A DNA stretch of 64,000 nt from Raillietiella orientalis (GCA_036172245.1 JAYWIR010000026.1:868001-932000), one strand, 5' to 3'; counted from the first letter of the stretch, positions 1 to 38,638 are shown. The notes: generated from the sequence alone by a model not told the origin. Numbers and translations are program-made.

Positions 1-3000
1 CGCGATGAACGAGTTGTGCGCCGCCATGCGTGCGCGCAACTTGTTCTCGGGTGAGAGGGGAATGGTCCGCAGCATCGACCACGTCTTCCTCGACGCTGCC
101 CTGTGTTCACGGGTCGGCAAACGGGGGAGGGTTGCGTCAACGTTGTCGGACCATTTCCGGTTAATTTTCGAGATGCGGCCTCGCGACAAAGGACCGCCAT
201 TCAGAGACTGGCGTCTGCCGGGGGACTGGACGCGACTCTCAGGTGCGAAGGAACACCTTCGCGAATACCTGAGAGGCGTCACGCTCCGGAATCTCCAAGA
301 CTGGGACCTTTTTAAGGAATCGGTCCGGGAATTCTGCGAGCAGTTCCCCCTGGACCGCCTGCCCTCCGGATTCGGCGAGGGTCCTCGCAACCATCGGGCC
401 TATTTACAGGCCCGTAGGTACGAACGAACCCCTAATGTCCGTCGCCTGGCCGAGTACCGCGCCGGGGCCGAACGCCAAGCCTGGCAATCCGGGTCGGCCA
501 GCTTGCTGGACGACCAGGGCCGGGAATGTTCGTCCCCGGCGTCGGTACGGCATCTCGTGCGGAGCTATTATTCCTCCCTTTACGCCAGGGCGCCCCCGGA
601 TCAAGATGCCTCTCGGCTCTTGCTTCCGGATGGTGCCCCGGCAATAGGGGAGGAGGAGTCGTTAAGCCTCGATGAGCCTTTTACCACCGGCGAAATTCTC
701 GCCGGTATCAAAAGGCTCAAGAGGCGGAAAGCTCCAGGGGAAGACGGCTTGCCCGCGGAGTTCTATCAGAGCTTCGCGGTAGAGCTGGCACCCCTGCTGC
801 TTCAGCTGACAAGGCTGATCAGAGACGAAGGCGATGTTCCCGCCTCGTTTCGGTCAGCCAGAGTGAGGCTCCTGCCGAAAGGGGGAGACCTCAGGGATTT
901 AAAGAACTGGCGTCCGATCACGATCGTGAATACGGACGCCAAGTTGATCGCAGGGTTATGGGCTTAGCGTCTGGGGCAGGTGGCAGAATCCGTAATTAGC
1001 CCGGAGCAGACTTATGCTGTTCCCGGGCGAAGTATGGATGCCAACCTCTTCTTCGCGAGCACGTGGATGCACGCGCAGAGGTGTCAAAAGGAAGGGAAAG
1101 GAAAAATCGGCAACCCCACTTTGGGGCCGCCAGCAGGGCAGGGAATGGATTCCCGGGCGGGGAAGGGGGCCTTAGCGCTCGCAGTCGATCTCCATAAGGC
1201 GTTCGACTGTGTTGACCAGGGGCTTTTGTTGGAGCTCCTGGGTCGCATGGGCTTCCCACCCTCCTTGATCAACTACCTGCGCTCCTGCTGGCGCCATGCG
1301 ATAGTTTCCGTCTCTTTCAGCGGTCAGAAGGTGCATGGCGTGCCGGTGCGGCGGGGCATCAGGCAGGGAGATAGCCTGAGTCCCCTGCTCTTCAGCACCT
1401 ACTTTGAGTTGGTGCTGAGAGCCTACAGGGTGACTTTGGCCTCCTTGCCTAGCTCGTGTCCCGGCACGCCCGCCGTAGCAGCCTATGCCGACGACCTTCT
1501 GCTCCTGTTACCTATGTCCACCCCGGCGAAGGCGGTCGGAGACTTCTTCGATCTCCTCAGCCGTGGGACCGGACTGCAGGTCAACAGGGCGAAGTCGTCG
1601 GTGGTGCCAGTAGGTGCGGCGTGGGCAGGGCAGCAGGACTGGGTCCGTCTGGGGATCCCCACGGCCAGGTGCCTCAAGTACCTTGGTGTGCCGTTGGGTG
1701 ACTACTCCCCTGCGGAAGCGTGGTCCAGCTGTCTTCCAAAAGTCGTGACGGCGATCGGCCCGTTCCTGGAAGGCAAGTTTCACTTGCCGGAACGGGCCGC
1801 GGTTTGGAACGCCTTCGCGGCCCCCATCCTCCGCCCCTTGCTTTTTGTTTGCCCCGCCCCCAGAGAATGCAAAAAGAGGACGAAGGACCTCCTCCGCATC
1901 GCCCTTTGGGGCAAGGGGAGGCCCCGAGTCCCTCTGCAGGACTTGTGCGCTCCGCGTCGGGACGGCGGCCTTGACCTCCTGACGCTGGAGCGCGTGGAAA
2001 TCCAGCTGCGGTGGCGAACCCTCGCCATCGCAGCAAAGATGTGGAGCACCCCTTGGTGCGTTCCGGCCCGCCACCTCGCCAGGCGTGTGTCCCGATGCGA
2101 GGGACTCGCGTCGTTTCTTCTGTGCCCTGGCCGGAAGATCCGAAGATGCGGCCTTATGCTCGGACGCATAGCACCTTGGCGAAGACGAACGGTTGGATGG
2201 TTTGTGGCCCCGCCAACTCCTCCGCCTGGTTAGAGGAGTCTGCTGGCACATGGGCTAAGCTGAACCGGAGGAGCGAAAACCACATGAACTGCCTGCGAAT
2301 CGGCCCATACGCCAACCGCACCCTGCGGGAAATACTGGAATTTCCCCGGAGTGGCAGGTGAGCGTTGACGACCCCCCTTGCTACGGCGATGCCCTACCTC
2401 CTGAGGGCGCTTCAGGATTGCCAGAAGCCGAGGTGGCAAGTCACCTGCCAGATCGCAGGCAGGGAGAAGATGTTAAGCGGCTGGACCACAGGAGAACTGG
2501 CGGACGCCACGACCCCGAGCGTCCAGCCGCGTGGACTAATGAGATGGGGCGAGCTGCTCGCCATCCCTACGGATGTGCTGAAGTGGCCCCCGGTACTAAA
2601 GGAATCCAGGATCCTGCCCCTTAAGTGGCAAGAGTCGGCGTTGCTACTGCTGCACTGGGGTTTACCCTGCAACGCACGCCGCTTCCACTGGACAAGGGGA
2701 GCTGTGGATCCTGAGTGTGTCAGGTGCGGAGAGCGGGAATCGCTCTCCCACCTTATTGTGGACTGTGCTGCCATCCGACCCCTCTGGGAACGGTTCGGGG
2801 CGACCCTAGGGCTCCCTTCGGGCAGCAACCCCAGAGACGTTCTTCGGCCCTTCTTCGTGAAGGACGCACTGCAGCCATCCGCAGCCATCGCAGCCTTGTG
2901 CTGTGTCCGTGGCATCGTGGCGGCATGGAGCGACGCCAATAACGAAGGAGTGGTTCCACGCGCGAGGGATGTCATCCCATACGCCCAACGCTTCATGCGG

Positions 3001-3297
3001 AGAGCTTCCGGATGGCCCCAACTGGGGAATATACGGACGGACCTCGAGGGCTTCCTTTAACGGATGGGCCCTCCTCACAGCGTTTAGTGATCCCTTCCCT
3101 GCCCTCCAACTTCTTTTTGTCTGTTTATTTTTTATTTTTCTTTTTGTTTTATCCCCATCCCCCTTTGCTGCTGAGGAACGCTACGCTGGGTTGCGTCCCG
3201 GCGTCCTGGCAGGTCCAGTGCATATGGCCGTGAGCGCGGCCTTGTACCGCGGATGTAGAGTTTTATCAATAAACGCCCCGGGCGTACCCGGGTGGAA
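1..3297 (+). mobile_element. Segment A: L1/Tx1-type non-LTR retrotransposon, family 1 (ORF2 from late endonuclease to C-terminal CCHC, plus 3' UTR); 5' part lies outside the window
   Basis: Endonuclease C-terminal motifs IDHVF and SDH; RT motifs KAPGEDG, WRPIT, KAFD, GIRQGDSLSPLLF, YADD; zinc finger CVRC-x8-H-x4-C. Stop at 965-967, frameshift near 2170 and stop near 2359. 3' terminal motif AATAAA(3268)-CCCGGG/CCCGGG hairpin-TGGAA. Confidence 0.93.
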
Positions 3298-3844
3298 ACC
3301 TCCAAGGCTGGCAAGAAGGCCGTAAGGCGTCCGGCCTCCCCTCAGGAGTCCCCCACTTCCGACCCCGAGGTGGAGGCCGGAAGCGCAGCCTCCGTTACCA
3401 CGGCACCGCGCAAGAAGGCTGGACGTAAGTCCACAAAGCCAAGGAAGCTCGTTTCCCCCGTCGAAGGGGAAGAGATGGCTACCGCAAGCGAGGGTGCCAT
3501 GAGCGTGGGAAACTCTCGGGACCCGTCGCCCGAGAGACTCCCACGCGCGGACACGGAGGGGATAGAGGGGGTGGAGGCCGAACAGGTGCCTCAGGTGCCT
3601 GAGAAGGCCGAAACCCCCTTGGACATCCCGCCTGCCTCGCAAGAGGAGGGCTCCCCCACACCTTAATCTTCCCAGCAGTAATGCCGGGAATCTCCTCCCG
3701 CCGTCGTCTGCGCATCGCCGTTTGGAACGTGAACGGCATGAAAGACGCCGGCAGAAGACGAGACATATCCGCCCTTCTGGAGTCCTACGACCTAGCGCTG
3801 CTGCAGAAGATCCACGTGATCTCTGCAGAACAAGCGCAAGAGAT
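3298..3844 (+). mobile_element. Segment a: ORF1 C-terminus and ORF2 start of a family-1 element (left part of element a+G)
   Basis: ORF1 tail resembles segment I (KKAVRRPA...RKKAGRKS). ORF2 begins MPGISSRRRLRIAVWNVNG (APE endonuclease N-terminus), breaks at AQEI and resumes at 17813. Confidence 0.88.
3833..3844. repeat. Target-site duplication, left copy, AGCGCAAGAGAT (right copy 17813-17824)
   Basis: Identical 12-mer at both ends of the minus-strand block 3845-17812. Removing the block restores ...AEQAQEIERISGGRL. Confidence 0.9.
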
Positions 3845-6800
3845 TTCTCACCCGGTCACGCCGGGGCGTTTATTCCATATAAGATAACCAAAAAAAGCAA
3901 TTATACAAAATATACCAGTTGGGAACCAAACATCCAACCGACGACTGAACAAGAATGAAGAGAATATTGCTGACACGCAGGCCAGAGTAACAGTTTTGCG
4001 AACGGCGTGAGGGGGCGGGGAACACAAAGAAATCAAAATAAAATAAAAACAATGAATAAGGAGGACGGGATAAGGGTCTTTGGGATCGCTCTGGAAGACA
4101 CGGGAATAAAAGCATGGGCACCGGAAATTTTACCGAGCGAACGAAGACGGGGTATGGGTGGGCGAGAGGTCGCAGGGGTCACCGGATTACGCCGTTCTCA
4201 AAGGTGTGTAAACAGGCGATGTATGCCGGTGATATCCTCCTTCACCTTGTCACGAAGATGAGGCCACCTTGAAGCCTTCTCCATGAATTGAGCTGCAAGC
4301 AGGTGAGCCTGCCTTCGCTGCGATGACAACTCCAGGGCGTAGCGGGCCTTCACGATGGCGCGAACGCAACACATGGTTGCGACAATCGCGCCAACCGAAA
4401 GTCCATTTCTGCTAAAGAAGCGCCGCAGCACATCAATGGCAGTGCCTCCTTGTGGCATGATGGCCGAAGTGAGCCTTCGCCACAGTTCCCGGAGGTCACC
4501 GCAGTCCAGCAAAAGGTGCGGAAAAGACTCGATCTCTCCGCACCTTAAACAGTTTGGCAAAGCAGCTCCCCCGGAAACGATGCTTCGCTGCCTATTACAG
4601 TGAAATGCACAATGTAAAAAGAGCAGCACATCTTGTTTCCACTTAAGGGGGGACACGGAGCTGTCCAAACAAACGGGGGGAACCACTATCTCTCCGGGGA
4701 ACACACTTAAATGTTCGCTCCACCGAAGCAGTCCCTTTGCCCGATTCCGAGGTGTGGCGGCTTGCACCAGCTCCTTTGTCGTCCAGCTGCCGAGGAGCTT
4801 ACTGAGTCCCGCTATTTTGCAGGAGAACTCCCATTCCGCCGGTAGGCAACCGTCGTTGCTTGCCCTGAGGGCAGACAGCGCTGCGGCGAGTGGTGTGGCG
4901 GCCAGACGATCCGACAACTTCTTGTCCTGCATGACTTCGTCCATTTGATGACTGAGGAGAAGTCGCAGGCGTCGAAGATCTTCCGGGCGCGTTCCTTCGG
5001 AAGCTGCCCACGATGAAAAAGATTCCTGTCGCCATGCATTAATGTTCATGGGGCGGCAGGAGATCCAGCTTTGGGCTTCCAGCAGTGAGGACAGCTGCCT
5101 CAGCGGGAAGCCAAACCCTATTCTGGTGTGCCGAAAGTGGGGTGGCAACGAAAGCAGTCCCTCGCTTCCCGTGCAGCGCCTCAGTATAAGGCGTGCGGGT
5201 CAGCACCACGGCGTACACCACAGCTTGGCACAGAGCCGCAGCATGCGAAACTGCACCTGCAGTTCTTTGCTGTTTAAGTCGAGGATGCCCAAGCCTGCAT
5301 CCTGACGCGGCGCCACCAAGTCTTTAAGTCTAACACGGGATCTTGCAGCGCCCCACAACGCTTTGCGTAGAAGGCGCTGCGCCCAGACTTTGACTTCCTG
5401 GGGGGGTGGACAAACAAAAAACAGGGGGCGGAGTAGGGGGGCAACGAAGGTGTTCCAGATGCAGGCCCGTTCCGGCAAGACGAACTCGCCTCCTGAAAAC
5501 GGGCCAAGTGCACGCTCTGCCTTCCGAAAGCAGTCCGACCACGCTTCTGAGATGCAGAAGTCGCCCAACGGCACGCCGAGGTACCTGAGGTACCTGCCCG
5601 TGAGGATCCCCAGGTCGATCCAGTCAGAATGCCCCTCCCACGTCGCACCCACCGGAACAACCATACACTTACTCCTGTTAACGCTCACGCCCGCAAAGCG
5701 ACGAATCAACTCAAAGAAGTCTTCAAGCGATGTCGCCGGGGTGGACATGGGCAACAGAAGAAGCAGGTCGTCGGCATAGGCTGCCACGGCCGGCGTACCT
5801 GGACAGGAGCTCGGCAGGTTGGCTAGCGTCAACCTGTAAGCCTCCAGCACCAATTCAAAATAGATGCTGAAGAGCAGCGGGCTTAAGCTGTCACCCTGCC
5901 TAATTCCTCGTCGTACCAACACGCCGTACACGCGACAGCCACTAAAAACAATGGATGTAATCGCGTGGCGCCAGCAGGAGCGCAAGTACGCCAACAGGGA
6001 TGCCGGAAGACCCAGACGTTCCAAAAGCTCAAGAAGAAGCTTTTGGTTCACGCAAACGAAAGCTTTGTGCAGATCGACTGCAACCGCCAAGGCTCCGGTG
6101 TCTCCCTTTGCGTCCCGCGCCTCCGTCGGTGAGAGATCGAAGGCATCGCTTCCGCACGACGATCCACCGCCACACGATGCTGCAATTGCAGCCATGTGCG
6201 GATGAACAAGAGATTCGCGTCCATGGACCGCCCAGGAACAGCGTACGTCTGCTCCGGACTTACCAAGGATTCCGCGATCCTCCCCATCCGCGCCACCCAA
6301 AGTTTCGAGAACAACTTGACGTCCGAATTCACTAATGTGATCGGACGCCAGTTGTTCAGTTGGCACAAATCTCCGCCTTTCGGCAGTAGACGCACCTTCG
6401 CTGAGCGAAACGAGGCGGGGACATCGCCCGAGTCTCGCATCAGCGACGAGAGTTGGAGCACCAGGGGGATGAGCTCCGCCGCAAAACACTGAAAGAATTC
6501 CGCGGGGAGCCCATCTTCGCCTGGCGCTTTTCGTCTCTTGAGCCCCGAGATCGCCGAGGAAATTTCCTCTGCCGTGAAGGGCTCATCAAGACGCGCGCGT
6601 TCCTCCTCGTCTACAACAGGTGCATCAATCGGCAGAAGCAGCCGGGAGAGGCTGCGTTCCGTCGGTGCCTCTGCATACAGAGAAGAGTAATAGCGCCTGA
6701 CTATCCGTCGCACGTCGGCTGGAGCCGAGCATTCCCGGTCCTGGTCGTCGAGCAGAACTGCCGCCCCTGACTGCCAGACCTGGCGCTCGGCCTTGGCCTT

Positions 6801-6943
6801 GTACTCGGATAATCGACCAACGTCCGCGCGCCTGGAAAAGGAGCAGGCCTGCAGAAAATCTCTGCTGTTGGCTACGCCCTCTCCGAAGCCGCGCGGAAGC
6901 TGGTGCAAGGGAAACCGGCAGCAGAACTCGCGGACCGATCTTT
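3845..6943 (-). mobile_element. Segment B: family-1 element, ORF2 from the EN-RT linker to the end, plus 3' UTR
   Basis: ORFs 6048-6908, 5200-6489 and 4198-5148 give RT (YADD) and CLRC-x8-H-x4-C, with frameshifts. 3' motif AATAAA (3869-3874, minus) + CCCGG/CCGGG hairpin. Confidence 0.92.
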
Positions 6944-8592
6944 GGGGATGCTCACGGTGAGGTACTTCAAGTACCTTGATGTGCCGTTGGGGGACTACTC
7001 CCCTGCGGAAGCGTGGTCCGGCTGCCTATAAAAAGTAGAGACGGCGATCGGCCCGTTCCGAGGCGGCAGGTTTTTCCTGCCTGAACGGGCCGCGGTTTGG
7101 AACACGTTCGCGGCTCCTCTCCTCCGCCCCCTGCTTTTTGTTTGCCCCCTTACAGAGAGAATTAAAAAGCGGACAAAGGACCTCCTCCGTATCGCCCTTT
7201 GGGGCAACGGGAGGGCCCGAGTCCGCTTAAAGGACTTGTGCGCTCCTCGTCGGGATGGTGGTCTGAGCCTCCTGACGCTGGAGTGGCTGGAGCTTCAGCT
7301 CCAGTTCCGATTGTCGGCACTCGTTCCAGAGTTGTGGTGCACCTGTTGGTGCGTCCCTGCACGTATCCTTCTCCAGCAAGCCACCGGCAAGACGGGACTG
7401 ACGTCGTTTCTTGCACTCCGTCGCCGCGTCAACCGATGCGGACTCCAGCTAAGGAGGGTGGCTGCGCTGTATCGGAAAAACCCAGGATTGCTCACCTGTC
7501 GCCAGTTTAACGGTAGTGCCTGGTTACAGGAAACCGTTCGAACGTGGGGACAGTTCGGCATGCAACGCTCCCAACAGGAACGAAGGTTCCTGTTTGGGGG
7601 TTACAGAAGTTGCACGCTCCGCGAGATCCTGGAGGATCCAAAGAAGAGAGCGTGGGCAGGAAGAACCGCCCTCGCTGCTGCGCTGCCCTCCCTGATGGAA
7701 GATCTGGACAGCAATGTTGCGGCGAAGTGGGTGGTTACAGTAACAATCTCCGGAAAGGAGAAGAAGATAGGAGAGTGGAAGACGGGCCAGTTAACAGACG
7801 CTGCGACCCCGAGTACGCCTCCCAATGGACTTCTGCGTTGGGGCGCGCTGCTCGATGTTCCCATTGAACATCTGAAGTGGCCCCCGGTGCTCATGAACAC
7901 TTCCGCCCTCCCCTTAAAATGGCAGGAGTCGGCTCTCCTGTTGCAGCACTGGGGACTTCACTGCAACGCCCGCCGACACCACTGGACCTGGGGAGCGGTG
8001 GACCCCAATTGCGTCAGGTGTGGGGAACGGGAGTCCCTCCCCCACCTGCTAGTGAATTGTGTTGCCCTTCGGCCCCTTTGGTTTCGCTTTGCCGCGGCCA
8101 TCGGAATCCCCTGCGGCAACCCCAGGGACACACTGAAAGTCCTCTTCGTTGCCGACGCCCTTCGGCCAGCGGCCTCGTTAGCAGCTTTGTGCTGCCTACT
8201 CCGGATCGTCACCGCTTGGAGCAAGGCTACAAGAGGACAACGCGACCAGGGTGCCATCCAGCCAGCCTTCCAGTTCCAGAGGAGGGCGTCCCGATGGCCC
8301 CACCTGGATCCAGAAATACAGAAGGAGCATGCCGGCATCCTGCAAAGGATGCAACGGCCCCACCAGCAACTGTGATCCCTTCCCTTACCCTCCCAACTTT
8401 TCTTTTCTTTTTTGTTTTGTTTTTTGTTTTTCCTCCTTCCCCCTGCTGCCGTGGTGGACCGTACCGGTCTGCAAACCGGTGACCCGGCAGGTTCTGTGTT
8501 TCTTCGTGCGTGGCTGGAGCAATGGTCCAGCCACTGCACGTCTTTGTAAATGTTTGTTTTATAATAAACGCCCCGGCGAAATCCGGGTGAAA
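6944..8592 (+). mobile_element. Segment D: family-1 element lacking its 5' part (late RT to CCHC, plus 3' UTR)
   Basis: VRYFKYL..., ORF 7236-8375 with CVRC-x8-H-x4-C. 3' motif AATAAA(8563)-CCCGG/CCGGG-TGAAA. Confidence 0.92.
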
Positions 8593-11054: not shown

Positions 11055-11146
11055 TAGTTTAAAACTATACCCAATACCCCGCCAAGGCAGTGTTTAAAAC
11101 CACTGCCAAGGCAATTTTCGAGTGCCCTGAGAGGGCAAGTGTTTGA

Positions 11147-13019: not shown

Positions 13020-13032
13020 GTCTTCCCCTTTA

Positions 13033-16307: not shown

Positions 16308-16451
16308 GTGCAGAACTTGTGAGAACCCAAGGACTTCATAGTGGTAAAAAAAAAGTGCTAATGGTATAAATGAGATTGTAGTGTGAATGTTTTTATAGAA
16401 AAATTTTAGAAAAATAAATTTACCCCACCCCTCGTGGGACTTGCGGAAAAC

Positions 16452-27100: not shown

Positions 27101-28364
27101 ACGAGCTCTCGAACGGCAAAGGTCCGGAGATGCTGGCGGAGGTGCTCCGCAGCCACCGGATTTCTCAACCAGTCGGCCGGCAACCTCCAGACGTGCGTCG
27201 GAGGGCCCTTGCCAGGCGGGAGTCGCTCAAACTCCAGCCTGTAGTGGTCGGAAAGCTCGGACGGCACGGGACCTCTTCGACCCACCCGACAATGCAGGTG
27301 ATCGTCGAGGAACACATGGTCCGGCAAAGCACGCATTCCGGGATCGTCGGCCAGCAAATTCGAGGCGTGCACCGACGCGCACACCTCGTTCACCAGCCGT
27401 TTCTCCCGGCGACGGTGAGACTCCTCCGATAGCGCGTGGACGTTGAAGTCCCCGGCTACGAGGTGAGCCACGTCGGGGCCGGAGTTGCTGAGCCAGCGGT
27501 CGCGCAGTCTCTCGAAAAACTCCAGTTTCTCGGTGTGACGCGCGGAGCCGCTCGGCGCGTACACGTTCGTGACGACAAGGTTGATCGATTCGGACCACTT
27601 GAGAACAAGTTGGCCCACACGACCTTCCTCGTCGAAACAAACGCTCCGCACCCCTCCCGCCACCCTGCCCCGGACAAGGAATGCGACTCCGCAGGTATTC
27701 TGGGAGCCTGACCTCCAATGGAGCGTCCCGCCTGCGCGAACTTGCAGATCGGCCGCTTGCTGCTCGGAGAGTGCGTGAATCTCCTGCAGCAGGGCCAGAT
27801 CGAAGTCGCGCAAGACGTTGGCAACCAATCGCCTCTTCTCGTTGTCCTGCAGCCCGTTGACGTTCCAACAGGCCACTCGGACGCGACGGGAAGAAGCGAG
27901 ACCGCGCATTGCTGCTACGGACATGGAGGTGCGTTCCTCGCCCCGTCCGGCGAGGCATCAGCCGGGAGCACGGCGGATGAGGTAGCGCAAGCGCTTCCTG
28001 TCCCCACCGCGCCGCTCACGGCCGGCTCGGTGGAGTCGAGGACCATTGCCTCGGGCTCCGAGGAGCATCGGCAACCGTTCCCGGCATCAGGCTCTTGCCT
28101 GGCAAGTTTTGGCTTGCGCGCAGCCCTGGCCTTGACCGGGGCTTGGCGAGCCTTAGCGCTGCCCTCGGACTCCACCTCGGAGTCCGAATTGCGCGCGCGC
28201 GGCGGCGGGCGTTTCGCCTGCCTCTTTGTTTGCTGGCAGCCCGGAGCTGGTCCAGCACTCTTAGAGGGTGCCTTCGTCACTGATCCCCCTTTCGGGGTCA
28301 CGGCTTCGGCAGCTCCCCTCTCGCCGCGGGTGTTTGCGGCGGCGCGCGCGGCGGCAGCAGAGGC
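24120..28364 (-). mobile_element. Segment J: 5'-truncated family-1 element (ORF1 tail, complete ORF2, 3' UTR) flanked by TTGAT TSD
   Basis: 902-aa ORF 25216-27924 (EN+RT) plus frameshifted C-terminus with CKRC-x8-H-x4-C. TTGAT at 24115-24119 and 28365-28369. 3' motif AATAAA (24143-24148, minus) + hairpin. Confidence 0.94.
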
Positions 28365-31300
28365 TTGATGTGGCAATGCGGCACCCGATACACCTGCGGC
28401 GTCGGGTTTTTTATGAAGCCGGCAGTCGACGCAGCAGTGAAGGGCGTGCGCTTCGACGAAGCCGGTCGTGTCGGCCAGCTGATTCTCAGGTGGTCCGACA
28501 CGATCGACCTCGTCGTAACAAATGTGTACGCTCCGAGCGGTCCTACCAGGTACCAGCAACGTAAAGCGTTCCTGGAAACCCTGAAGCGCGACTGGCTGGC
28601 GGAAGCGAACGTGTGCGTGGCTCACCTGATAGCGGGAGACTTTAATCTCCGCCTGCTATCAGGTGAGCCACACGTACAGGAGCGGACGGCTAACGAGTTG
28701 TGCGCCGCCATGCGCACGCGCAACTTGTTAGGGGATCTTTCGGAAATGGTCAGCAGCATCGACCACGTCTTCCTGGATGTCGACCTGTGTTCACGGGTCG
28801 GCAAACGGGGGAAAGTTGCGTCGGTGCTGTCTGACTATTTCCGGTTGATATTCGAGGTGTGCCCGCTCGACAAGGGCCCCCCATCCAGGGCGTGGCGTCT
28901 GCCTGGGGACTGCACGCGACACTCAGGTGCGAAGGAACACCTTCGCGAATTCCTGAGAGGCGTCACCCTCCGCAATCTCAATGATTGGGACCTTTTTAAG
29001 GCCTCGGTCCGCGAGTTTTACGAGGAGTTCCCCTTGCACCTCCTGCCCCGGGGATTTGGGGTGGGCATCCGCAACGAACGAGCGTACTTGTATGCCCGTC
29101 GTTACGCGAGGACCCCCAATGTCCGTCGCCTGGCAGAGTACCTAGCCGGGGCCGAACGTCAAGCCTGGCAATCCGGATCGGCCAGCTTGCTGGACGACCA
29201 GGGCCGGGAGCACTCGGCTCCGGCTAGAATACGGCACCTCGTGCGGCGTTTTTATTCCTCCCTTTACGCCAGGGCGCCCCCGGACCAAGATGCCTCTCGG
29301 CGCTTGCTTCCGAACGGTGCCCCGGCAATAGGGGAGGAAGAGAAGGAAAGCCTCGACGAGCCTTTTACCACCGGCGAAATTCTCGCCGGTATCAAAAGGC
29401 TCAAGAGGCGGAAAGCACCAGGGGAGGACGGCCTGCCTGTGGAGTTTTTTCAATGCTTCGCGGCAGAGTTGGCACCCCTGGTGCTTGAGTTGACAAGGCT
29501 GATCCGAGATGAAGGCGATGTACCCGCCTCGTTTCGGTCAGCCAGAGTGAGGCTCCTTCCGAAACGAGGAGACCTCAGGAAACTCAGCAACTGGCGTCCG
29601 ATCACAATTGTGAACACGGACGCCAAGCTGATCGCCGGACTGTGGGCTTCGCGTCTGGGGCAGGTGGCTCATTCCATAATTAGCCCGGAGCAGACTTACG
29701 CTGTTCCCGGGCGAAGTATGGAGGCCAACCTCTTCTTCGCGAGCACATGGTTTCATGTGCAGAGTAGTAAAGAAAAGGAAGAGAGAAGGATTGGCAGCCC
29801 CGCTTTGGGGGCGTCAGCCGGGCAGGGACAGGACTCCCAGGTGGGGAAGGGAGCCCTGGCGATCGCAGTCGATCTGCATAAAGCGTTTGACTGCGTGGAC
29901 CAGGATCTCCTGCTGGAGCTCCTGGGACGCATGGGCTTCCCTCCCTCCCTACTGACCTACCTGCGCTCTTGCTGGCGCAGCGCGCTGATCAATATCTCTT
30001 TCAGAGGTCAAATGGCGTACGGCGTACCGGTACGGCGAGGCATACGGCAGGGCGACAGCCTCAGTCCCCTGCTCTTTAGCACCTACTTTGAGTTGGTGCT
30101 GAGAGCGTACAGGGTGACTTTGGCTTCCTTGCCAAGCTCGTGCCCCGGCACGCCCGCCGTAGCAGCGTACGCCGACGATCTTTTGCTTCTGTTGCCAATG
30201 TCCACCCCGGCGAAGGCGGTCGGGGATTTCTTCGATCTGCTTAGCCGCGGGACCGGACTTACGGTGAACAGGGCGAAGTCGACGGTGGTTCCAGTCGGTG
30301 CGGCGTGGGCTGGGCAGCAGGACTGGGTCCGCTTGGGGATCCCCACGGCGAGGTGCTTGAAGTACCTTGGTGTGCCGTTGGGGGACTACTCCCCTGCGGA
30401 AGCGTGGTCTGGCTGCCTCCAAAAAGTGGAAACGGCGATCGGCCCGTTCTTGGAAGACAAAGTTCTCCTTCCGGAACGGGCCGCGGTATGGAACGCGTTC
30501 GCGGCTCCTATCCTCCGCCCCCTGCTTTTTGTTTGCCCCGTCCCCAGAGAGTTGAAAAAACGGACAAAGGACCTCCTGAGAATTGCCCTTTGGGGAAGAG
30601 GGAGGCCCCGAGTCCCGTTGAAGGACTTGTGTGCTCCACGTCGGGATGGCGGTCTCGGCCTCTTGACGATGGAGCGAGTAGAGATTCAGCTGCGGTGGCG
30701 AACCCTCGCCATCGCAGCGAAGTTATGGAGCACTTCTTGGTGCGTTCCGGCCCGACTCCTTGCCAGCCGTGTATCCGGATCGGAGGGTCTCGCGTCCTAT
30801 CTTCTGTGCCGTGGCAGGAAGATCAAGAGATGCGGACTTCTCCTGGGACGCATGGCAACTCTGGCTAAGGAAAACGGCTGGATGGTATGCAGCCCCGCCA
30901 ACTCCTCCGCATGGCTGGAGGAGACAGCTGGCACGTGGGCGAAGATTAATGAAAAAAATGAAGAGATGTGGAACTGCCTGCGACGCGGCGCCTATTCCCG
31001 CTGCACTCTGCGGAAGATACTCCAGTGTCCCGCGAGAAGCACGTGGGCAGAGACAACCCCCCTAGCTACGGCGTTGCCCTTCCTGAGGAGGGCGCTCTCC
31101 AGCAGCCGCAAGCCTAGGTGGCAAGTCTCCTGCCGCATCGCAGGCAAGGAGAAGTTGATCAGCGGCTGGTCCACGGGTGAACTGGCGGACGCCAGTACCC
31201 CTAGTGTCCAGCCGAGAGGACTGCAGAGATGGGGCGAGCTACTCGGCATCCAGCCGGATGACCTGAAGTGGCCCCCGGTATTAATTGGATCTAGGATCCT

Positions 31301-31766
31301 CCCCCTGAAGTGGCAGGAGTCGGCGCTTCTGTTGTTGCATTGGGGTCTACCCTGCAACGCACGCCGCCACCACTGGACCAGGGGTCGAGTAGATCCTACC
31401 TGCATCAGGTGTGGGGAACGGGAAACCCTCCCTCACCTCCTTGTTGATTGTGCTGCCCTCCGACCCCTGTGGGAACGTCTTCGTGCCTCCCTACGGATCC
31501 AGGACGGCAGCCAGCCCAGAGACGTTTTTCGGCTTCTGTTCGTGCATGATTCCCTGTGTCCAGCCGCTGCCCTGGCTGCACTTTGCTGCGTACGCGGGAT
31601 TGTGACGTGCTGGAGCAACGTCGGAAGACCGAATCACGACAGGGATGCCGTCGTACTTGCAGTCCGCTACCTGCGGATTGTGACCAGATGGCCCCACCTG
31701 GGAATTATACGGACGGACCTCGAGGGCATCCTGCGAAGGATGGACCCTCCTCCCAGTGGTCAGTGA
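28365..31766 (+). CDS. Uninterrupted 1133-codon ORF2 portion: APE endonuclease, reverse transcriptase, CCHC
   Basis: NVYAP, GDFN, IDHVF, KAPGEDG, WRPIT, KAFD, QGDSLSP, YADD, CIRC-x8-H-x4-C. Its N-terminus is separated by insertion J, so it is not an independent gene. Confidence 0.9.
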   Translation: MMWQCGTRYTCGVGFFMKPAVDAAVKGVRFDEAGRVGQLILRWSDTIDLVVTNVYAPSGPTRYQQRKAFLETLKRDWLAEANVCVAHLIAGDFNLRLLSGEPHVQERTANELCAAMRTRNLLGDLSEMVSSIDHVFLDVDLCSRVGKRGKVASVLSDYFRLIFEVCPLDKGPPSRAWRLPGDCTRHSGAKEHLREFLRGVTLRNLNDWDLFKASVREFYEEFPLHLLPRGFGVGIRNERAYLYARRYARTPNVRRLAEYLAGAERQAWQSGSASLLDDQGREHSAPARIRHLVRRFYSSLYARAPPDQDASRRLLPNGAPAIGEEEKESLDEPFTTGEILAGIKRLKRRKAPGEDGLPVEFFQCFAAELAPLVLELTRLIRDEGDVPASFRSARVRLLPKRGDLRKLSNWRPITIVNTDAKLIAGLWASRLGQVAHSIISPEQTYAVPGRSMEANLFFASTWFHVQSSKEKEERRIGSPALGASAGQGQDSQVGKGALAIAVDLHKAFDCVDQDLLLELLGRMGFPPSLLTYLRSCWRSALINISFRGQMAYGVPVRRGIRQGDSLSPLLFSTYFELVLRAYRVTLASLPSSCPGTPAVAAYADDLLLLLPMSTPAKAVGDFFDLLSRGTGLTVNRAKSTVVPVGAAWAGQQDWVRLGIPTARCLKYLGVPLGDYSPAEAWSGCLQKVETAIGPFLEDKVLLPERAAVWNAFAAPILRPLLFVCPVPRELKKRTKDLLRIALWGRGRPRVPLKDLCAPRRDGGLGLLTMERVEIQLRWRTLAIAAKLWSTSWCVPARLLASRVSGSEGLASYLLCRGRKIKRCGLLLGRMATLAKENGWMVCSPANSSAWLEETAGTWAKINEKNEEMWNCLRRGAYSRCTLRKILQCPARSTWAETTPLATALPFLRRALSSSRKPRWQVSCRIAGKEKLISGWSTGELADASTPSVQPRGLQRWGELLGIQPDDLKWPPVLIGSRILPLKWQESALLLLHWGLPCNARRHHWTRGRVDPTCIRCGERETLPHLLVDCAALRPLWERLRASLRIQDGSQPRDVFRLLFVHDSLCPAAALAALCCVRGIVTCWSNVGRPNHDRDAVVLAVRYLRIVTRWPHLGIIRTDLEGILRRMDPPPSGQ

Positions 31767-31972
31767 TCCCTCCCCAACCCTCCCAAATCTTTTTGTTTTT
31801 ATGTTTTATTTTTCTTTTTGTTTTTTCCCCCCCCCCCTTCCGCTGCCGAGGAGAGTCGCGCCGGTCTGCGTACCGGCGACCCGGCAGGTCCAGTTGAGTT
31901 GGCCGTAGTGGGGCCTCGTACCACGAACCAAAGAGAATTTTGAATAAACGCCCCGGCGTGACCGGGTGGCAT
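28365..31972 (+). mobile_element. Segment K: remainder of element I+K (ORF2 and 3' UTR)
   Basis: Resumes exactly where segment I stops (IAGGRL|MWQCGTRYTCGVGF). 3' motif AATAAA(31943)-CCCGG/CCGGG-TGGCAT. Confidence 0.94.
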
Positions 31973-32762
31973 CTATCAACTTGGCATCCGCATTCACTAT
32001 TGTGATAGGACGCCAGTTGCTCATGCTCCGAAGGTCTCCTCCCTTAGGGAGGAGACGCACCTTTGCCGAACGAAACGAGGCGTGGACGTCGCCCGTTTTG
32101 CGGATCAGCAAGGTGAGTTTCTTCACCAGAGGAGTGAGCTCTGCCGCGAAACATTGAAAAAATTCCGCTGGCAGGCCATCCTCCCCTGGAGCCTTCCGCC
32201 TCTTGAGCTTTCCGATGGCCGAGATGATCTCGCCCATCGTGAAAGGTTCGGCGATTGTCTTTCTATGTTCCTCCCCGATTGCCGGAGCGCCTTCCGGAAG
32301 AAGAAGTCGCGAGACATCCCGTTCCTGTGGAACGCGCGCGTACAGGGAGGAGTAGAATTTTTTTAATACGCCTTTTACCTAGGCGGGGGCCGAGTGCTCC
32401 GAACCCTGGTCGTCCAGTAAGCTGGCCGACCCGGATTGCCACGCCTGCCTCTCGGCTCCTGCACGGTATTCGGCTAGCCTGCGTACGTCTGGTGTTCGCG
32501 CGTAACATCGAGATTGTAAATACCATCTCTCGCTACGCACGCTTTCACCAAACCCGGCAGGCAGGAGGTTCATAGGGAACTCGTCGCAAACATCCCGGAC
32601 CGAGCGCTTGAAACGGTCCGAGTACTGAAGCGTCTGTAAGCTGAAACCTCGTATGAATCCGCGGAGATGCTCCGCAGCTTCCGGAAGTTTCAGCCATTCC
32701 CCCGGTAAGCGCCACGCAGATGACGGCGGACCCCTATCGCGTGGGCGCACCTCGAGTACGAT
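31973..32762 (-). mobile_element. Segment L: upstream part of element L+H (end of endonuclease to WRPIT)
   Basis: IVLEVRPRDRGPP...QAWQSG...KAPGEDG...WRPITIVNADAKLI, joining segment H across the 13-bp TSD. Confidence 0.9.
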
Positions 32763-32850
32763 TTTCCCCAAGTCCCACAAGGGGTGGGGTAAATTTATTT
32801 TCTATAAAAATAACATTCACACTACAATTTTATATTCACACTCTCATTCA
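32763..32850 (-). mobile_element. Segment m: ~90-bp 3'-terminal fragment of family 2
   Basis: The reverse complement ATTGTAGTGTGAATGTT...AAATAAATTTACCCCACCCCTTGTGGGACTTGGGGAAAA matches the 3' end of segment E (16375-16450). Confidence 0.88.
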
Positions 32851-34047
32851 CGCTGAAGGACTCGCGTCTTCTCTTCTGTGCTCCGGCCGGTAAATAAGAA
32901 GATGCGGACTTCTCCTGGGATGCATGGCCACCCTGGCAAAGGAGAACGCGTGGATGACCTGCATCCCCGCCAACTCCAGCGCATGGCTGGAAGAAACAGT
33001 TGGAACGTGGGCAAAGATAAACAATATCAGTGAAGAATCCTGCAACGGCCTGCGTACCGGCATCTACACCCGCTGCACGCTGCGGAACATGATCGTGTGT
33101 CCCGCCAGAAGCACATGGGCGGAGACGACCCCACTGGCCACGGCGCTACCCTTCCTACGGAGGGCGCTCCGCAATATTCGGAAGCCGAGATGGCAAGTCT
33201 CCTGCCGGATAGCGGGCAAAGAGAAGGATCTGACTGGGTGGACCATGAGGGAACTTGCTGACGCCGCGACCCCAAGAATTCACCCACATGGACTACGGAG
33301 ATGGGGCGTGCTGCTTGGCATCCCGACGGATGACCTAGAGTGGCCCCCGTCGTTCATTGATTCATCAATCCTCCCCCTAAAGTGGCAGGAAACGGCGCTG
33401 CTGTTGTTGCACTGGGGTCTTCCCTGCAACGCGCGCCGCCAACACTGGACGTGGGGGAATGTTGAACAGAACTGCGGTGTGCGGGGAGAAGGAATCCCTC
33501 CCCCATCTGTTAGTGGACTGCGGTGCCCTCCGGCCCTTGTGGGAACGTTTTGCTACGAACCTTTCAATGCCGGTAGGCAGCACCCCCAGAGACGTTATGA
33601 GATTCCTCTTCGAGCGACACGCCCTGACACCAGCCTCAGCCCTGGCAGCACTTTGCTGCCTCCGAGGGATTGCGGCCGCGTGGAGCGCAGCCAACAGAGG
33701 AAGCAGCGACAGGGATCCCATCGTACACAATGGTCGATACCTGCGAATCGCGATCGGCTGGTCCCATCTGGGAACAATGAAGAGGGACCTCGAGGGCATC
33801 CTCGAAAGGATGGTCTCTTCCTCCAGCGGGCTGTGATCCCTTCCCGGCCCTCCAAATAGTTTTTTTTCGTTTATTTCTTTTATTTTTCTTTTCGTTTTTA
33901 CCCCCTACCCCCTCCGCTGCCGAGGAGAGTCAAGCCGGCCTGCGAGCCGGCTTCCCGGAAGGTCCAAAGAACTATTGGCCGTAGCGGGGCCTCGTACCAC
34001 GAAAACAAAGTGTTTAGGAATAAACGCCCCGGCGTGACCGGGTGAAA
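32851..34047 (+). mobile_element. Segment N: 3' fragment of family 1 (A/K-like subfamily)
   Basis: MATLAKENAW...LPLKWQE...HWGLPCNARR. 3' motif AATAAA(34019)-CCCGG/CCGGG-TGAAA. Confidence 0.9.
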
Positions 34048-34394
34048 ACTCCCCGATGTCCAGTGAGATGATCGTGCTCTTCTTAAAAGTCCCCAATGGA
34101 GCAGAAGCAACGCCGTCTCCTGCCATTTCAGGGGAAGGGTGCCGTTATCCCAACCCGCTGGGGGCCACTTCACCTTCTTCGGAGGTACGTCGAGCAGCGC
34201 GCCCCAGCGTATAAGTCCATTCGGCGGGACAGTGGGAGTACTAACGTCCGCTAGTTCCCGAGACGTCCACGCCTTCAACAGTTTTTTTCTGTTTCCGATG
34301 AGGCAGGACACTTTCCACGATGTCTCTTGCTGGTTGTCCCGAACTTCCCTGATGGACTGGGGCAAGGGGGATGAAAGAAGCCTACAGAAGTTTC
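34048..34394 (-). mobile_element. Segment O: internal ORF2 C-terminal fragment of family 1
   Basis: WKVSCLIG...WTSRELAD...LPLKWQETALLLLHWG, cut at HWTSGS by the 3' end of segment N. Confidence 0.85.
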
Positions 34395-35429
34395 GTCGAT
34401 GACCGTACGCTCGACAGCCGCTGCAGGAGATTATCAACACGCCCCGGAAGTTTCTGTGTGCTTCTTTCACCCCCCTTGCCCCCGTTCTGTCCTCCCTGAA
34501 GAACATTAGGAGCAGCAACAAGGGAGCATCGTGGGAAGTGTCCTGCCTCATCCGACGCAGGAGAAAACCTTTAAAGGCGTGGACGACTTGGGAGCTAGCG
34601 GACGCTGCCACCCCGAGCGTCCCTCCTCACGGACTTGTGCGCTGGGGAAAGCTGCTCGCAATACCTCCGGAGGAGGTGAAGTGGGCCCCCGCATGTTGGG
34701 ATTGCGGCACCCTTCCGTTAAAGTGGCAGGAGACGGCGTTGCTATTTCTGTACTGGGGACTGTTAAGCATAGCACGCCTGTTTCACTGGGCACTGGGGAA
34801 CGTGGATGCCCGATGCGTCGAATGCGGTGAAAGGGAAACCTTCCCACATCTTACCCTCGAGTGTGTCGCCCTGGTTGGACTCTGGAGTCTAATCGCCCCA
34901 ATCCTCCATCTTCCAGTAGGCGACCCTAAGGTCACTTACCGTCGCCTCTTTCTGCGTGACGACCTGCGCTCCGCTGCGTCTCTAGCAGTCCTCTGCTGCG
35001 TGCTCGGCATCGTGCAAAGGTGGAACGCAAGAGGTCAAAGATGCAGGGACGCCATCCACTGGACGACGATCTCCTTGGAGACGGCCACAAGGTGGCGTCT
35101 ACCAGCAACGATAAAAACGGAACTTGTCTGCATCCTGGAGAGGACGCGGAGGACCTATCTAGGCGCTCAGTGATCCCCTCCCTGCCCTCCACTCCCCCAT
35201 ATAACTATTCCCCCTCCCCGTTATTTCGCTTTTTGTTTCTTTGTTTTTTATTTTCCCCTTCCCCCGCGCCTGGGGAGAGAACCTCGCAGGTCTAAGGACC
35301 GGGTAGAGAGAATATTGCAGCGTGGGAGAACCGAGTGTTCCCCCACATAAAAAAGTTTTTTAAAGACTTTATTATCTAATTTTTGTAACAAATTAGAATA
35401 ATAAATGCCCCGGCATATCCGGGTGACAA
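34395..35429 (+). mobile_element. Segment P: 3' fragment of family 1
   Basis: ORF 34538-35173 with CVEC-x8-H-x4-C. 3' motif AATAAA(35400)-CCCGG/CCGGG-TGACAA. Confidence 0.88.
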
Positions 35430-38400
35430 ACATCCCAGTGAAGAACCCTGCCGAGATCGTGCCCCGGCACGCCTGCTGTGTCAGCCTTTGAAGACGATCT
35501 GCTGCTGCTTCCTGGGTCCATCCCGGCTTGTGCGCTCGAGGACTTCGAGTTGCTCCGCCGCGGGACGGCCTGGAAGTGAACAGGGCGAAGTCATCCATCG
35601 TATATGTCAGCACAGCTTGGGCTGGACGGTCGGACTGGATCCGCCTGGGGAGCACACGGGCAGGTGCTTCAAGTACCTTGTCGTTCCGTTGGGGGACTTC
35701 TGCGTGACAGAAGCCTGGTCCCACCGTCTCCAAAAGACATCGTTGGCGATCGACGCGTTCCAACACAAGTTTTACTTGCAGGAACGGCCGCGGTGTGAAA
35801 CGCGTTTGTGGTCCCCCTTCTTCGCCCCCTACTTTTTGTGCCCCGCCCCTCACTGTGAGAAAAAGAGCAGCGAGCCTCCTAAGGACAGTCCTTTGGGCCA
35901 AAGAGAGGTCCCGTGTGCGACTTAAAGACTTGTGCGCTCCACGTAGGGAAGGTGGACTTGGTCTGCTGACGTTGGAGCGCATGGAGCGTCAGCTGCAGAT
36001 TAGGAAACTTGCCCTTGTGTCGAAATATTGGACAGCACTATGGTGTGCGCCCACACGACTCCTCGCCCACAGAGCAACCAGCTGCAACGGATTGAAGGTC
36101 GGGGAAAACTTCGTCCATCCCCAATGGAGGCACTTCTGTTATTGGGAGAACCTGTAAGGATACACCGCATACAAAGGAGCAGCCCAGCTCGAGGATGTGA
36201 CTACTTGGCTGGTCCGGAACAGAGAGCTAGGAGGCGAGCTAGGAGAGGTGAACTATGGGGCTCTATTGTACGAAGAGGTAGGGAAATACTTGTCCGAGGA
36301 GTGGCGTGCGCCAAGAGAGATTCCCATCGCCAAAGAATGAGTCAGATCGGGGATCTGCACCATGGGGAAGGCTGGAACGGGCAGGAAGACCACCGTTTTG
36401 GTGGACGGGAAGGAGGTAAGAACATCAGCTATGAAGGGAGTTGACGCCGCCGTGTTCTCAGACGAGGAAATCCTACTCATGCTGTACAGGCCTGTGAATG
36501 AAACGATGGTAGTGATCGAAAAAAGTGAACCACGTAAAGTTCGCCCAGTTGTTAAGACCGGCAACGCGGTGAATCGTAAAATGGACTTCTTAGCAGTTGT
36601 TGACAGGGGCTTGTACGGAACGAAGACGACCACGCTCTGCGGCGGCACGGCGGGAAATGAGGATATCGACAAGGTCTTACTTGAGGACGTGGAGTGCCCG
36701 AGGACCTGTAAAGGACCCCTTGACCAGAAAAACTTTGACCAACACCAGTCGAAGTATAGCATAGCTTGTGTGCTTGCTGAGGTAAGGGGCGAAGTCATAG
36801 CGCGTTTTAAGGACTCGCGACCAAATGTGCTTAAGATCTGGGAGGCTCTTTGGGAAAGCGTGTTAGTCAACCAGGTCGAGGTTGTCCTAGGCAACAAGCG
36901 CATGCGGTGGGGGAACGGCATCCCTAGCGGTTGGCGGTGGACCGCCTTGCTTGATACTTTGCTTAACATAGCCAGCTTCCGAGTCGGTGAAGTGTGTCAA
37001 GCTGGGATTAAGCGAGGACTTTCCGGTCTTAAACCATGTCAGCCGAGGTGATGACGTCGTGTTTTCTACTAAGCATTTATAACACGCTAGTTGTCTGGTG
37101 ACTGAATTGAACCGGTTGGGCTACGAAGTACATCCCCATAAGACCTTCGTCTCGCGTCATAGGAGCGAGTTCCTTAGGCGGAGTTATGAGCCAGGAGTCG
37201 TTACGGGCTACAATGCACGAAGCCTCACGTCTATCCTGTACCGGAACCCTATAATCCCTAGTCCTGTCTGCAGAGCCGAGAGGGTATACGGTAGGCTCCG
37301 AATGTGGCATCTGGCGGTATTGAGGGGCAATTCAGCTTCAGCCTGTGCGGAGCTCTTCCTCGAAGACGCCTGCCAGTTAGGGGTCTCCGCCTCCGACGCT
37401 GTGGGGTATGCACTGACCCCAATCCTTGTGGCCAATGACGGTAGACTGAACCATTGTGGGTTTCAGCTACGGGACTTGGTGGCCGTGGTGAGGAACAACC
37501 CGTGGATTTCCTGCAGCCCCGCAAACTGGACTATCTGGCTCCAGGAGTCCGTTTCCGCGTGGGCAAAAATCAACGGCTCCAGCGACGTGGATTTCTCCTG
37601 CCTCCGTCGAGGCAGGAACGCTGGCCAGCCCCTGCGGGAAATCGTTTGCAACCCACGGAAACTTCTATGAGCTTCCTTCACCCCCCTTGCCCCCGTGCTG
37701 CCCTCCCTCAGGGAAGTTAGGGATAGCCAACAGGAGGCATCGTGGGAAGTGTCCTGCCTCATCAGAGGCAGGAAAAAACTGTTTAAGGCGTGGACGTCCC
37801 GGGAACTAGCGGGCGCTACAACCCCGAGTGTCCCAGCAAATGGAATGGTGCGCTGGGGCGAGCTGCTCGACATGCCTTCGGAGAAGTGGCCCCCGGTGTA
37901 TTGGGACAGTGACCCCCTCCCTTTGGATTGGCAGGAGACGGCGCTGCTTGTGCTCCATTGGGGACTTTTAAGCAGAGCACGCCTGTCTCACTGGACATTG
38001 GGGAGATTGGATGCCCATTTTGCAGAGTCCGGGGAAAGGGAGACCTTCCCCACTTAATAATCGAGTGTTGCCCTCTGCAGCATGTGGGATCGACTCTCGT
38101 CAGCCATAAACGCACCGGTGGGCGACCCTAAAAATATTTTCGGCGCCTCTTGATGAGGAACTCCCTGCCAGGTGCCGCGTGGGTTGCAGTTCTCTGCTGC
38201 ATACGGGGAACATTGGACAAGTGGAACGCGTCAATAAGAGGCCGCAGTGGTCGGAATGCCATCCACTGGGCGGTCATCTCAATGAAGAAGGTTTCCCGTT
38301 GGCGCCGGCTGAGTAAAATTCTGCCAGCACTTGTTCGCATCCGGAACCAGATGCAGAGGCCTCCCCTCGGCGATCAGTGATCCTTTCTCTTCCCTCCCCT

Positions 38401-38638
38401 CCCCATAAACAGTCCCTCGAGTGTTTTTCTTTTTTGTGTTTTTGTTTTTTTCTCTTTTTCCCGTCCCCTTCGCCAGTGGAGAGGACCTTACCGGCATACA
38501 AGTTGGACGGGACAAGTGCATAAGACAATAAGAACAATGTGTTCTGACTGGAACACAAGTACAGACGACAGGAGTTCATTATAAAATATATAATTGTAGA
38601 ATTTTTAATAATAAAAGCCCCGGTTTACCCGGGTGAAA
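35430..38638 (+). mobile_element. Segment Q: decayed family-1 element (RT FEDD region to 3' end) carrying a viral insert
   Basis: SCPGTPAVSAFEDDLLLL, LKDLCAPRREGGLG, LPLDWQE, with many frameshifts. 3' motif AATAAA(38610)-CCCGG/CCGGG-TGAAA, then AT-rich host DNA. Confidence 0.88.
36096..37416 (+). pseudogene. Endogenous viral element: toti-like (Ghabrivirales, Giardiavirus-like) RNA-dependent RNA polymerase fragment
   Basis: Ordered RdRp motifs EPRKVRPVV (F), PLDQKNFDQHQ (A), GIPSGWRWTALLDTLLN (B), RGDDVV (C, ~37044, after a +1 frameshift), EFLRR (E). Several in-frame stops. Unrelated to the surrounding LINE ORF2. Confidence 0.9.

Follow-up and report, generated by a model that had tools for sequence, protein, structure and literature searches.

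The DNA analysed in this study is a single window of 64,000 nt from Raillietiella orientalis (GCA_036172245.1 JAYWIR010000026.1:868001-932000), and its first 38.6 kb are an island of long interspersed nuclear elements (LINEs) that have inserted into one another. Two pairs of sister copies in this island entered related elements at the same, or nearly the same, position of the second open reading frame (ORF2), and all four did so in antisense orientation. These recurrent sites give specific support, short of proof, to a reading in which members of one LINE clade home to their own relatives at subfamily-specific sites. The probability of this reading is put at about 0.5.

Composition of the island and its element families

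The GC content is 54-64% over positions 1-38639 and 30-51% beyond. Apart from a fragment of a toti-like viral RNA-dependent RNA polymerase (RdRp) and a copy of the U4 small nuclear RNA (snRNA), positions 1-38639 hold only pieces of retrotransposons without long terminal repeats (non-LTR retrotransposons) that encode an apurinic/apyrimidinic-type endonuclease (APE) and a reverse transcriptase (RT). RVT_1, Exo_endo_phos or zf-CCHC was found in 9 of the 17 longest stop-to-stop ORFs of the island and the other eight had no Pfam match, and tblastn searches with the island ORFs made essentially all stretches assignable to ORF1, ORF2 or an untranslated region (UTR) of such elements. Beyond about 38.65 kb, no nucleotide or protein similarity to the island elements was found in the 25.4-kb flank, and none of the 96 distinct flank ORFs scanned, from a total of 144 ORFs of at least 60 amino acids, carried a transposable element (TE) domain. 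The left edge of the island lies outside the window, as does the 5' end of the first copy, S1. An initial annotation, made from the sequence alone, had described the content as two L1/Tx1-type families and one viral fragment, all absent from the adjacent 25 kb. The exclusive LINE composition, the viral fragment and the empty flank were borne out, but the U4 copy and a second-family fragment (d2) had been missed; with a U4 copy at the 5' end of an element, the island is not purely TE and virus.

The LINEs comprise one main family with four subfamilies and a second, distant family represented by element D, whose ORF2 is 27-31% identical to the main-family ORF2 at the amino acid level. Nucleotide identity among the island copies is 66-82%, and ORF2 protein identity to element I ranges from 36% to 83%; judged by sequence, the copies are old and diverse. 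The ORF2 of H has an endonuclease followed by an RT (Exo_endo_phos, E 7e-16; RVT_1, E 1e-19), both domains were found in I, where Exo_endo_phos is weak (E 7e-4), and RVT_1 was found in D (E 1e-33). The top match among solved structures was human LINE-1 ORF2p (E 2e-43), with R2 proteins behind it (1e-11 to 1e-15). A zf-RVT match at the ORF2 C-terminus (21.5 bits, E 3.8e-4) falls under the 27.5-bit gathering cut-off, and the relatives retrieved by the search carry PF13966. In ORF1 of C/B a zf-CCHC knuckle scores 21.2 bits against a cut-off of 20.8 bits, and no Pfam match was found for ORF1 of Y or of D. The architecture is that of an L1/Tx1-like APE-type non-LTR retrotransposon, and the label stops at the level of the L1/Tx1 group.

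All nine main-family 3' ends consist of AATAAA, a 5-bp CCCGG-loop-CCGGG stem, TG and a short A-rich tail, which is AAAA in five of the nine copies. The motif AATAAA-N2-3-CCCGG-N5-6-CCGGGTG, which had already been noticed in the initial annotation, has eight exact matches, all at or below position 38635, where 100 shuffles gave an expectation of 0. A ninth, degenerate motif with one mismatch, that of X, lies at 19370 on the minus strand. The D family ends in AATAAA, a CCCAC-loop-GTGGG hairpin, ACTTGCGG and AAAA, so that two stem pairs differ from the main family on both arms (CCCAC/GTGGG vs CCCGG/CCGGG) in a compensatory way. These pairs were taken directly from the sequences and folds. Minimum-energy folds contained a terminal stem of 4-5 bp in five of six cases, and in the sixth (H) the same arms pair differently. 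Four subfamilies were recovered in a tree built from the terminal 1,030 nt of all nine copies with 3' ends, with support of 100/100 for (F,H), (E,X) and (S20,S23) and 99/97 for (S1,I,K). S1 is 81% identical at the nucleotide level to 28692-31969, within I, and its 3' motif lies at 3268-3294.

A conserved 5' terminus, GTGC[A/G]GACGTGTTT...CCGCG, is common to both full-length elements (C/B, 17780-17812 on the minus strand; Y+I, 21724-21760 on the plus strand). The two belong to different subfamilies yet share this terminal sequence, which is predicted to mark the true transcription start region. Y+I also carries a tandem repeat of about 96 bp in ORF1 (21891-22198, plus strand), coding for ...KKG(A/T)T(A/V)...LEKAATAP... 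units, and the frame opened by its ATG at about 21813 is not that of the long ORF at 21888-23777.

The nearest relatives outside the island were two metagenome proteins at 68% and 76% identity, after which identity dropped to 30-36%. Among the best 150 representatives listed, of which 20 were looked up, the relatives at 30-36% included proteins from a turtle, a Closterium alga and a pseudoscorpion, and none of the 20 bore the name of a clade. Matches in the protein atlas fell in APE/RT/zf-RVT clusters. The best named relative outside the family, a turtle protein (P0152, 36%), has three tandem copies of one RT N-terminal region and is probably an annotated nest or array. A metagenome scan with the 3' motif gave three loci, none with nucleotide or protein similarity to the elements; two of the contigs (L001 and L003) carry a AATAAAGGCCCCGG-loop-CCGGGTG end without detectable similarity to the island elements. 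A scan of viral_contigs with ORF2 gave no relatives.

Nested layers and recurrent insertion sites

The island had been reconstructed in the initial annotation as a nest of four alternating layers, with target-site duplications (TSDs) of 12, 13 and 5 bp, and the TSDs were located exactly at the splits. The 12-bp TSD, AGCGCAAGAGAT, lies at 3833-3844 and 17813-17824, the 13-bp TSD, CTATCAACTTGGC, at 21711-21723 and 31973-31985, and the 5-bp TSD, TTGAT, at 24115-24119 and 28365-28369. When inserts were excised in silico, a frame was open across the join in all four cases. Y+I became an element of 5,999 bp with an ORF2 of 1,273 codons, a 646-codon ORF1 spanned the join of C and B once U4 and D (10998-16450) were taken out, and 164 codons of a+G and 289 codons of X+J were open through their joins. 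Because three TSD pairs stand at exact splits and all four frames are restored, the layers are confirmed: a+G on the plus strand was entered by X+J on the minus strand, which was entered by Y+I (plus), which was in turn entered by H (minus).

The hallmarks of target-primed reverse transcription are present in the island, namely 5' truncation, TSDs of 5-13 bp and defined 3' ends, and two elements are full length (Y+I and C/B). Ten of the eleven 3' junctions are TE-into-TE and one, that of S23, is into host DNA. A repeat search around the ends found no TSD of at least 7-8 bp for E, U4+D, K, S20 or the RdRp::S23 unit, and a 7-mer, CGATTTT, near 32759 was not accepted as a TSD since it contains tail bases. 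One element of the earlier reconstruction did not hold. F, C and B had been read as a single copy split by E, but F and C, both inside 3845-17812, cover a common stretch of about 885 bp in element coordinates, where they align without indels at only about 75-77% identity, and therefore represent two source copies rather than the halves of one. F meets E head-to-head at 6941/6942, a join that simple nesting does not explain. Template switching onto the transcript of a nested copy, ectopic recombination and assembly error are each possible sources of the joins at 6941/6942 and 8593/8594.

The sister copies E and X adjoin their respective targets, C and G, at the identical nucleotide and in antisense orientation, and the E|C and X|G junctions read alike (...GGTG AAAA TCGAATGCTTT). 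On the sense strand of the target the site falls directly after AAAGCATTCGA, the K-A-F-D codons, following the conserved Asp of the RT palm, in a region which is taken here to be motif A. E and X are 74-97% identical in all eleven 150-nt bins, whereas their targets are only 44-66% identical. The two are therefore independent insertions, and a duplicated composite as the source of both junctions was excluded by the same identities. Among the seven main-family copies that span the site, the exact 11-mer AAAGCATTCGA is present in C, G and X; it is occupied in C and G and unoccupied in X, where the base after GA is C and not T.

The other pair of sister copies entered the start of ORF2. F entered a+G and H entered Y+I, both antisense and 26 nt apart in homologous sequence, a distance by which duplication of a composite was rejected for the a|F and Y|H junctions as well. 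The nicks follow AGAGAT and GTTGAT, about 10 and about 19 codons past the L-Q-E-I-H codons of the endonuclease domain. For eight events in a 6-kb element, the chance of one exact coincidence is p=0.0024 if positions are uniform and p=0.165 if only about 156 GAT sites are usable. For an exact pair accompanied by another pair no more than 30 nt apart, the values are p=0.0002 and p=0.018, respectively. The likelihood of chance is lowered further because the members of both coincident pairs (E/X and F/H) are sister copies with tree support of 100/100.

A nick after GAT, read as a tail followed by ATC, was found at five of nine main-family 3' junctions. GAT occurs 469 times in the sense and 494 times in the antisense strand of the elements, and at 31 per kb in the host flank against 26 per kb in the island. 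The clustering, the orientation and the empty flank are therefore all left unexplained by a bare nick motif, and strand asymmetry or scarcity of GAT was rejected as the reason for the antisense bias or for the lack of copies in the flank. All twelve later insertion units lie in the island and none in the 25.4-kb flank (p=3e-7, under a rough null in which each unit lands uniformly in the island so far plus the flank).

Captured sequences, host flank and feature coordinates

U4 and D stand head-to-tail on the same strand and were inserted as one unit in ORF1 of C/B, and excision of the unit is frame-neutral, as the regained 646-codon ORF1 indicates. The unit has no TSD, with no repeat of at least 8 bp between 10940-11010 and 16050-16450. 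It is probably a template-switch chimera, though it may instead stem from transcription that ran from a U4 gene into an adjacent master copy. The viral fragment matches Pfam RdRP_1/RdRP_4 (E~1e-3) and is 44-52% identical to arthropod toti-like RdRps (best E 7e-102) and to endogenous copies of a similar kind in Lepidoptera. It lies between S21 and S23, and its right end shares strand and frame with the ORF2 tail of S23. This endogenous viral element was probably captured by a LINE reverse transcriptase.

The last exon of a nucleotide-sugar transporter gene ends 0.6 kb from the island edge, and its best matches are branchiopod and insect proteins at 60-75% identity, which indicates an arthropod host whose own protein is absent from the matches listed. 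The flank also holds an inverted repeat of about 170 bp (61070-61235 and 61370-61540, 90% identity) that is unrelated to the island. Coordinates of all features are collected in Table 1.

Table 1. Features of the window, with coordinates counted from its first nucleotide.
Feature	Coordinates	Strand	Evidence or remark
S1, main-family 3' part (ORF2 codon ~137 to 3' end)	1-3298	+	Tail GAAA; sense, in ORF1 of a+G
a, ORF1 C-terminus and first ~70 ORF2 codons of a+G	3299-3844	+	Ends in a 12-bp TSD copy
F, subfamily F/H, 3' end to ~ORF2 codon 241	3845-6941	-	Tail AGAAA; 3' side of the 3845-17812 insertion
E, subfamily E/X, 5'-truncated (ORF2 codon ~684 to 3' end)	6942-8593	+	Tail AAAA; 3' end abuts C antisense
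C, ORF2 start to K-A-F-D codons and ORF1 C-terminus	8594-10997	-	Part of a full-length minus-strand element
U4 snRNA, full-length copy	10998-11135	+	Fused to D 5' end; Rfam RF00015, 90.1 bits, model 1-138/138
D, second family (ORF1 11147-12430, ORF2 13020-15896)	11136-16450	+	Antisense in ORF1 of C/B
B, 5' UTR and ORF1 N-terminal part (CCHC) of C/B	16451-17812	-	5' end of the 3845-17812 insertion
G, continuation of a+G (ORF2 codon ~67 to K-A-F-D)	17813-19365	+	Starts with second 12-bp TSD copy
X, subfamily E/X, 3' part	19366-21723	-	Tail AAAA; abuts G antisense at K-A-F-D; ends in a 13-bp TSD copy
Y, 5' UTR, ORF1 and first ~80 ORF2 codons of Y+I	21724-24119	+	Y+I full length
H, subfamily F/H, 4.2 kb, near-complete ORF2 (913+259 codons)	24120-28364	-	Innermost; antisense in Y+I; flanked by TTGAT
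I, rest of Y+I	28365-31972	+	ORF2 open for 1160 codons here; 3' end 31968
J, 5'-ward part of X+J	31973-32761	-	Starts with second 13-bp TSD copy
d2, ~90-bp D-family 3' fragment	32762-32850	-	Sense relative to J; 80% identity to reverse complement of 16370-16450
K, subfamily S1/I/K, 5'-truncated	32852-34048	+	Tail AAAA; antisense against S19
S19, short ORF2 C-terminal fragment	34049-34393	-	
S20, subfamily S20/S23, 5'-truncated	34394-35430	+	Tail ACAAA; sense against S21
S21, old ORF2 fragment (codons ~615-836)	35431-36091	+	
Toti-like virus RdRp fragment	36092-37440	+	Frameshifted; right edge uncertain (37392-37604)
S23, oldest-looking copy (ORF2 codon ~835-900 to 3' end)	37410-38639	+	Tail AAAA; 3' end is the island/host edge
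Host flank	38640-64000	.	Without island elements
Nucleotide-sugar transporter exons	39257-39847, 39834-40025, 43434-43754	-	UDP-GlcNAc/UDP-Gal type
MSP-domain exon	51503-51856	-	

Choice of targets within the island

Known site-specific LINEs settle safely either in foreign transposons or in conserved sequences that the host carries in many copies (rDNA, snRNA genes, telomeres, microsatellites). The initial annotation had proposed that the elements of the island home to their own relatives, or else that the locus may be a TE trap. The nest is real, and the two recurrent, subfamily-specific antisense sites in ORF2 point to a sequence-directed choice of sites that exist only in relatives; the excess of antisense junctions, however, is not significant.

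A specific form of this proposal can be outlined, though it is tentative and should be taken as possible rather than probable. The E/X lineage would integrate in the RT genes of other LINEs, members of its own subfamily among them, at the sense strand of the K-A-F-D codons; a sister lineage, F/H, would strike where the endonuclease-coding region begins; the catalytic genes of relatives would be knocked out in the process; and competition among subfamilies would build a safe harbour beside host genes. In the wider self-targeting reading, which is about as likely as not, the island would have grown by repeated target-primed reverse transcription of one L1/Tx1-like clade into earlier copies of the clade. 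The endonuclease, or pairing of the RNA 3' end, would rely on a sense-strand nick that follows GA(T) in the target, and with this first nick in the sense strand the cDNA would be laid down antisense. The stem-loop of the RNA may be recognised by the element's own RT, as in the 'stringent' type treated in PMC3472496, and the nicked GAT end could be the pairing partner of the short AAAA(UC) end of the RNA. If transcription of a master copy at the same site ran on into TCGAAUGCUUU, pairing at other K-A-F-D sites might be reinforced. At least two subfamilies would have preferred sites of their own, that of E/X directly after AAAGCATTCGA and those of F/H at GAT about 10-19 codons downstream of the L-Q-E-I-H codons, and relatives would be preferred over the rest of the genome. 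With dead or live relatives as targets, the island could grow without hitting host genes, a self-made safe harbour from which the elements would presumably benefit. Switching of templates by the RTs at the 5' end would yield the U4::D and RdRp::LINE chimeras. More speculatively, the F/E/C arrangement might have formed if synthesis of the F cDNA moved on to the RNA of a further C/B-type copy in which an antisense E was already lodged.

Several points weigh against self-targeting. The coincidence statistics are post hoc and come from one window with two recurrent sites of two events each, and a nick or priming motif longer than GAT would make such coincidences likelier. No recurrent site was seen for the three S1/I/K events or for those of D. 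Recounting gave the same 7 antisense and 3 sense TE-into-TE junctions as the initial annotation, which had rightly judged the ratio not to be statistically strong (one-sided p=0.17). One copy, S23, lies in ordinary host DNA, so the targeting is not absolute, and purifying selection against insertions in the genic flank could be the source of the sharp edge. The F/E/C arrangement and the 32.7-38.6 kb part are not reducible to clean nested insertions. Lastly, hot spots are common in nested TEs of the human genome, in the data presented in PMC2836564, and this tempers the argument from sites.

One alternative, on balance unlikely but to be taken seriously, is that the island is a passive haven with ordinary hot spots. 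Here insertion would be nearly unselective, with a weak preference for nicks at GA(T), genic insertions would be purged, neutral ones into dead copies would persist, the island would grow by survivorship, and the recurrent sites would be the best sites for the endonuclease or for priming. The generality of hot spots in the human TE-into-TE data of PMC2836564, the GAT-limited value of p=0.165 for an exact coincidence among eight events and the position of S23 in host DNA all agree with this, and selection could plausibly act on a flank whose genes start 0.6 kb from the island. However, a passive haven should gather other classes of TE, and the 38.6 kb hold a single LINE clade, with copies at 36-55% ORF2 protein identity to I all within the same 38 kb. 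Both coincident pairs are also sister subfamilies, and the exact and near pair together retain p=0.018 even when only GAT sites are counted. An improbable account is that integration is directed by chromatin, with the island in a transposon-type centromere or other special domain that recruits the integration machinery ('centrophilic' transposons) and the nesting a by-product of targeting to the region. Nested single-family clusters on both strands are the signature expected for the transposon state of centromeres according to bioRxiv 10.64898/2026.09.17.752431, Zepp clusters of 1.5-42 kb are reported as GC peaks, one per chromosome (passages of PMC3446292), and the left edge of the island lies outside the window. 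Targeting of a region does not, however, predict reuse of a site to the exact nucleotide in targets that are 44-66% alike, and conserved genes begin 0.6 kb from the edge. An artefact, either mis-assembly of dispersed repeats or segmental duplication of a few old composites, is very improbable. The head-to-head F|E join and the F/C overlap, which simple insertion does not explain, would fit it, but copies that differ by 13-50% are too different for repeat collapse, TSD pairs and restored frames mark the splits, and at the host junction both 3' end and tail are normal. The identities of E/X and C/G and the 26-nt distance between the F and H sites likewise argue against composite duplication.

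The published systems closest to the island, as far as the passages of the papers cited below describe them, differ from it in target and in orientation. Zepp and ZeppL of Chlorella, Coccomyxa and Chlamydomonas are L1-clade LINEs that target existing copies of themselves (PMC8226300); their clusters, 1.5-42 kb in size, stand out as GC peaks (61% vs 53%) and are not otherwise present in the genome (PMC3446292, PMC8226300), and the arrays are mostly 3' ends in tandem (PMC8226300). The island is similar in that GC-rich copies of an L1-type LINE are nested, with 10 of 11 junctions TE-into-TE and no copies in the flank. It differs in that 7 of 10 of these junctions are antisense and lie inside ORF1 or ORF2, at subfamily-specific sites rather than as tandem 3' ends, in that the host is an arthropod, and in that the nearest proteins outside the family are at about 30-36% identity. 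Families of the Tx1 clade are reported in PMC4494074 to target DNA transposons, LTR elements, microsatellites and snRNA genes, with Tx1-Mar in Mariner-N4_AMi, Tx1-9_AMi in Harbinger, Tx1-8_Crp and Tx1-4_AMi in LTR elements and Keno in U2. These are likewise APE-type LINEs, with defined integration positions in other transposons or in multicopy genes, but in the island the target would be the element's own clade (the ORF2 sense strand at the K-A-F-D codons), with a specificity that is drawn from two events per site. No report was found, in the literature searched, of any LINE directed at an RT-coding motif in other LINEs, though the supplements of papers may list such targets.

Nested L1 and Alu copies in the human genome occupy non-uniform, orientation-dependent positions in their target TEs even without site specificity, and L1 insertions into L1 have a sense bias of about 2.2:1 at A-rich endonuclease sites, according to the sections of PMC2836564 drawn on. 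The island elements differ from these in having no long poly(A), in their GA(T) sites and in being mostly antisense. Chimeric retrocopies of snRNA and L1, of the U6/L1 type, arise by template switching in the account given in PMC4494074. U4::D is alike in that a LINE copy carries a complete snRNA at its 5' end, in its own orientation, and the two were inserted as a unit, but the snRNA is U4, the LINE part is full length or nearly so, and no TSD of at least 8 bp was found. In 'stringent-type' LINEs of the L1 clade, as outlined in PMC3472496, a conserved 3' sequence or structure replaces the long poly(A) tail. The 5-bp stem of the island elements, with its variable loops and the compensatory changes in the D family, is comparable, and recognition by the RT is predicted by analogy; the host belongs to another kingdom.

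The capture of U4 and of a toti-like RdRp suggests that these RTs generate endogenous viral elements and snRNA chimeras. If self-targeting is true, the conserved coding motifs of relatives would be a new class of LINE target, and an endonuclease and RNA pair with a target of 11-12 nt would be a natural example of programmable-looking LINE targeting. It would also extend Zepp-like self-nesting from green algae to animals and would explain how TE islands of a single family can arise beside genes without harm. Competition between subfamilies, in which one LINE disables the RT of another, would then be directly testable.

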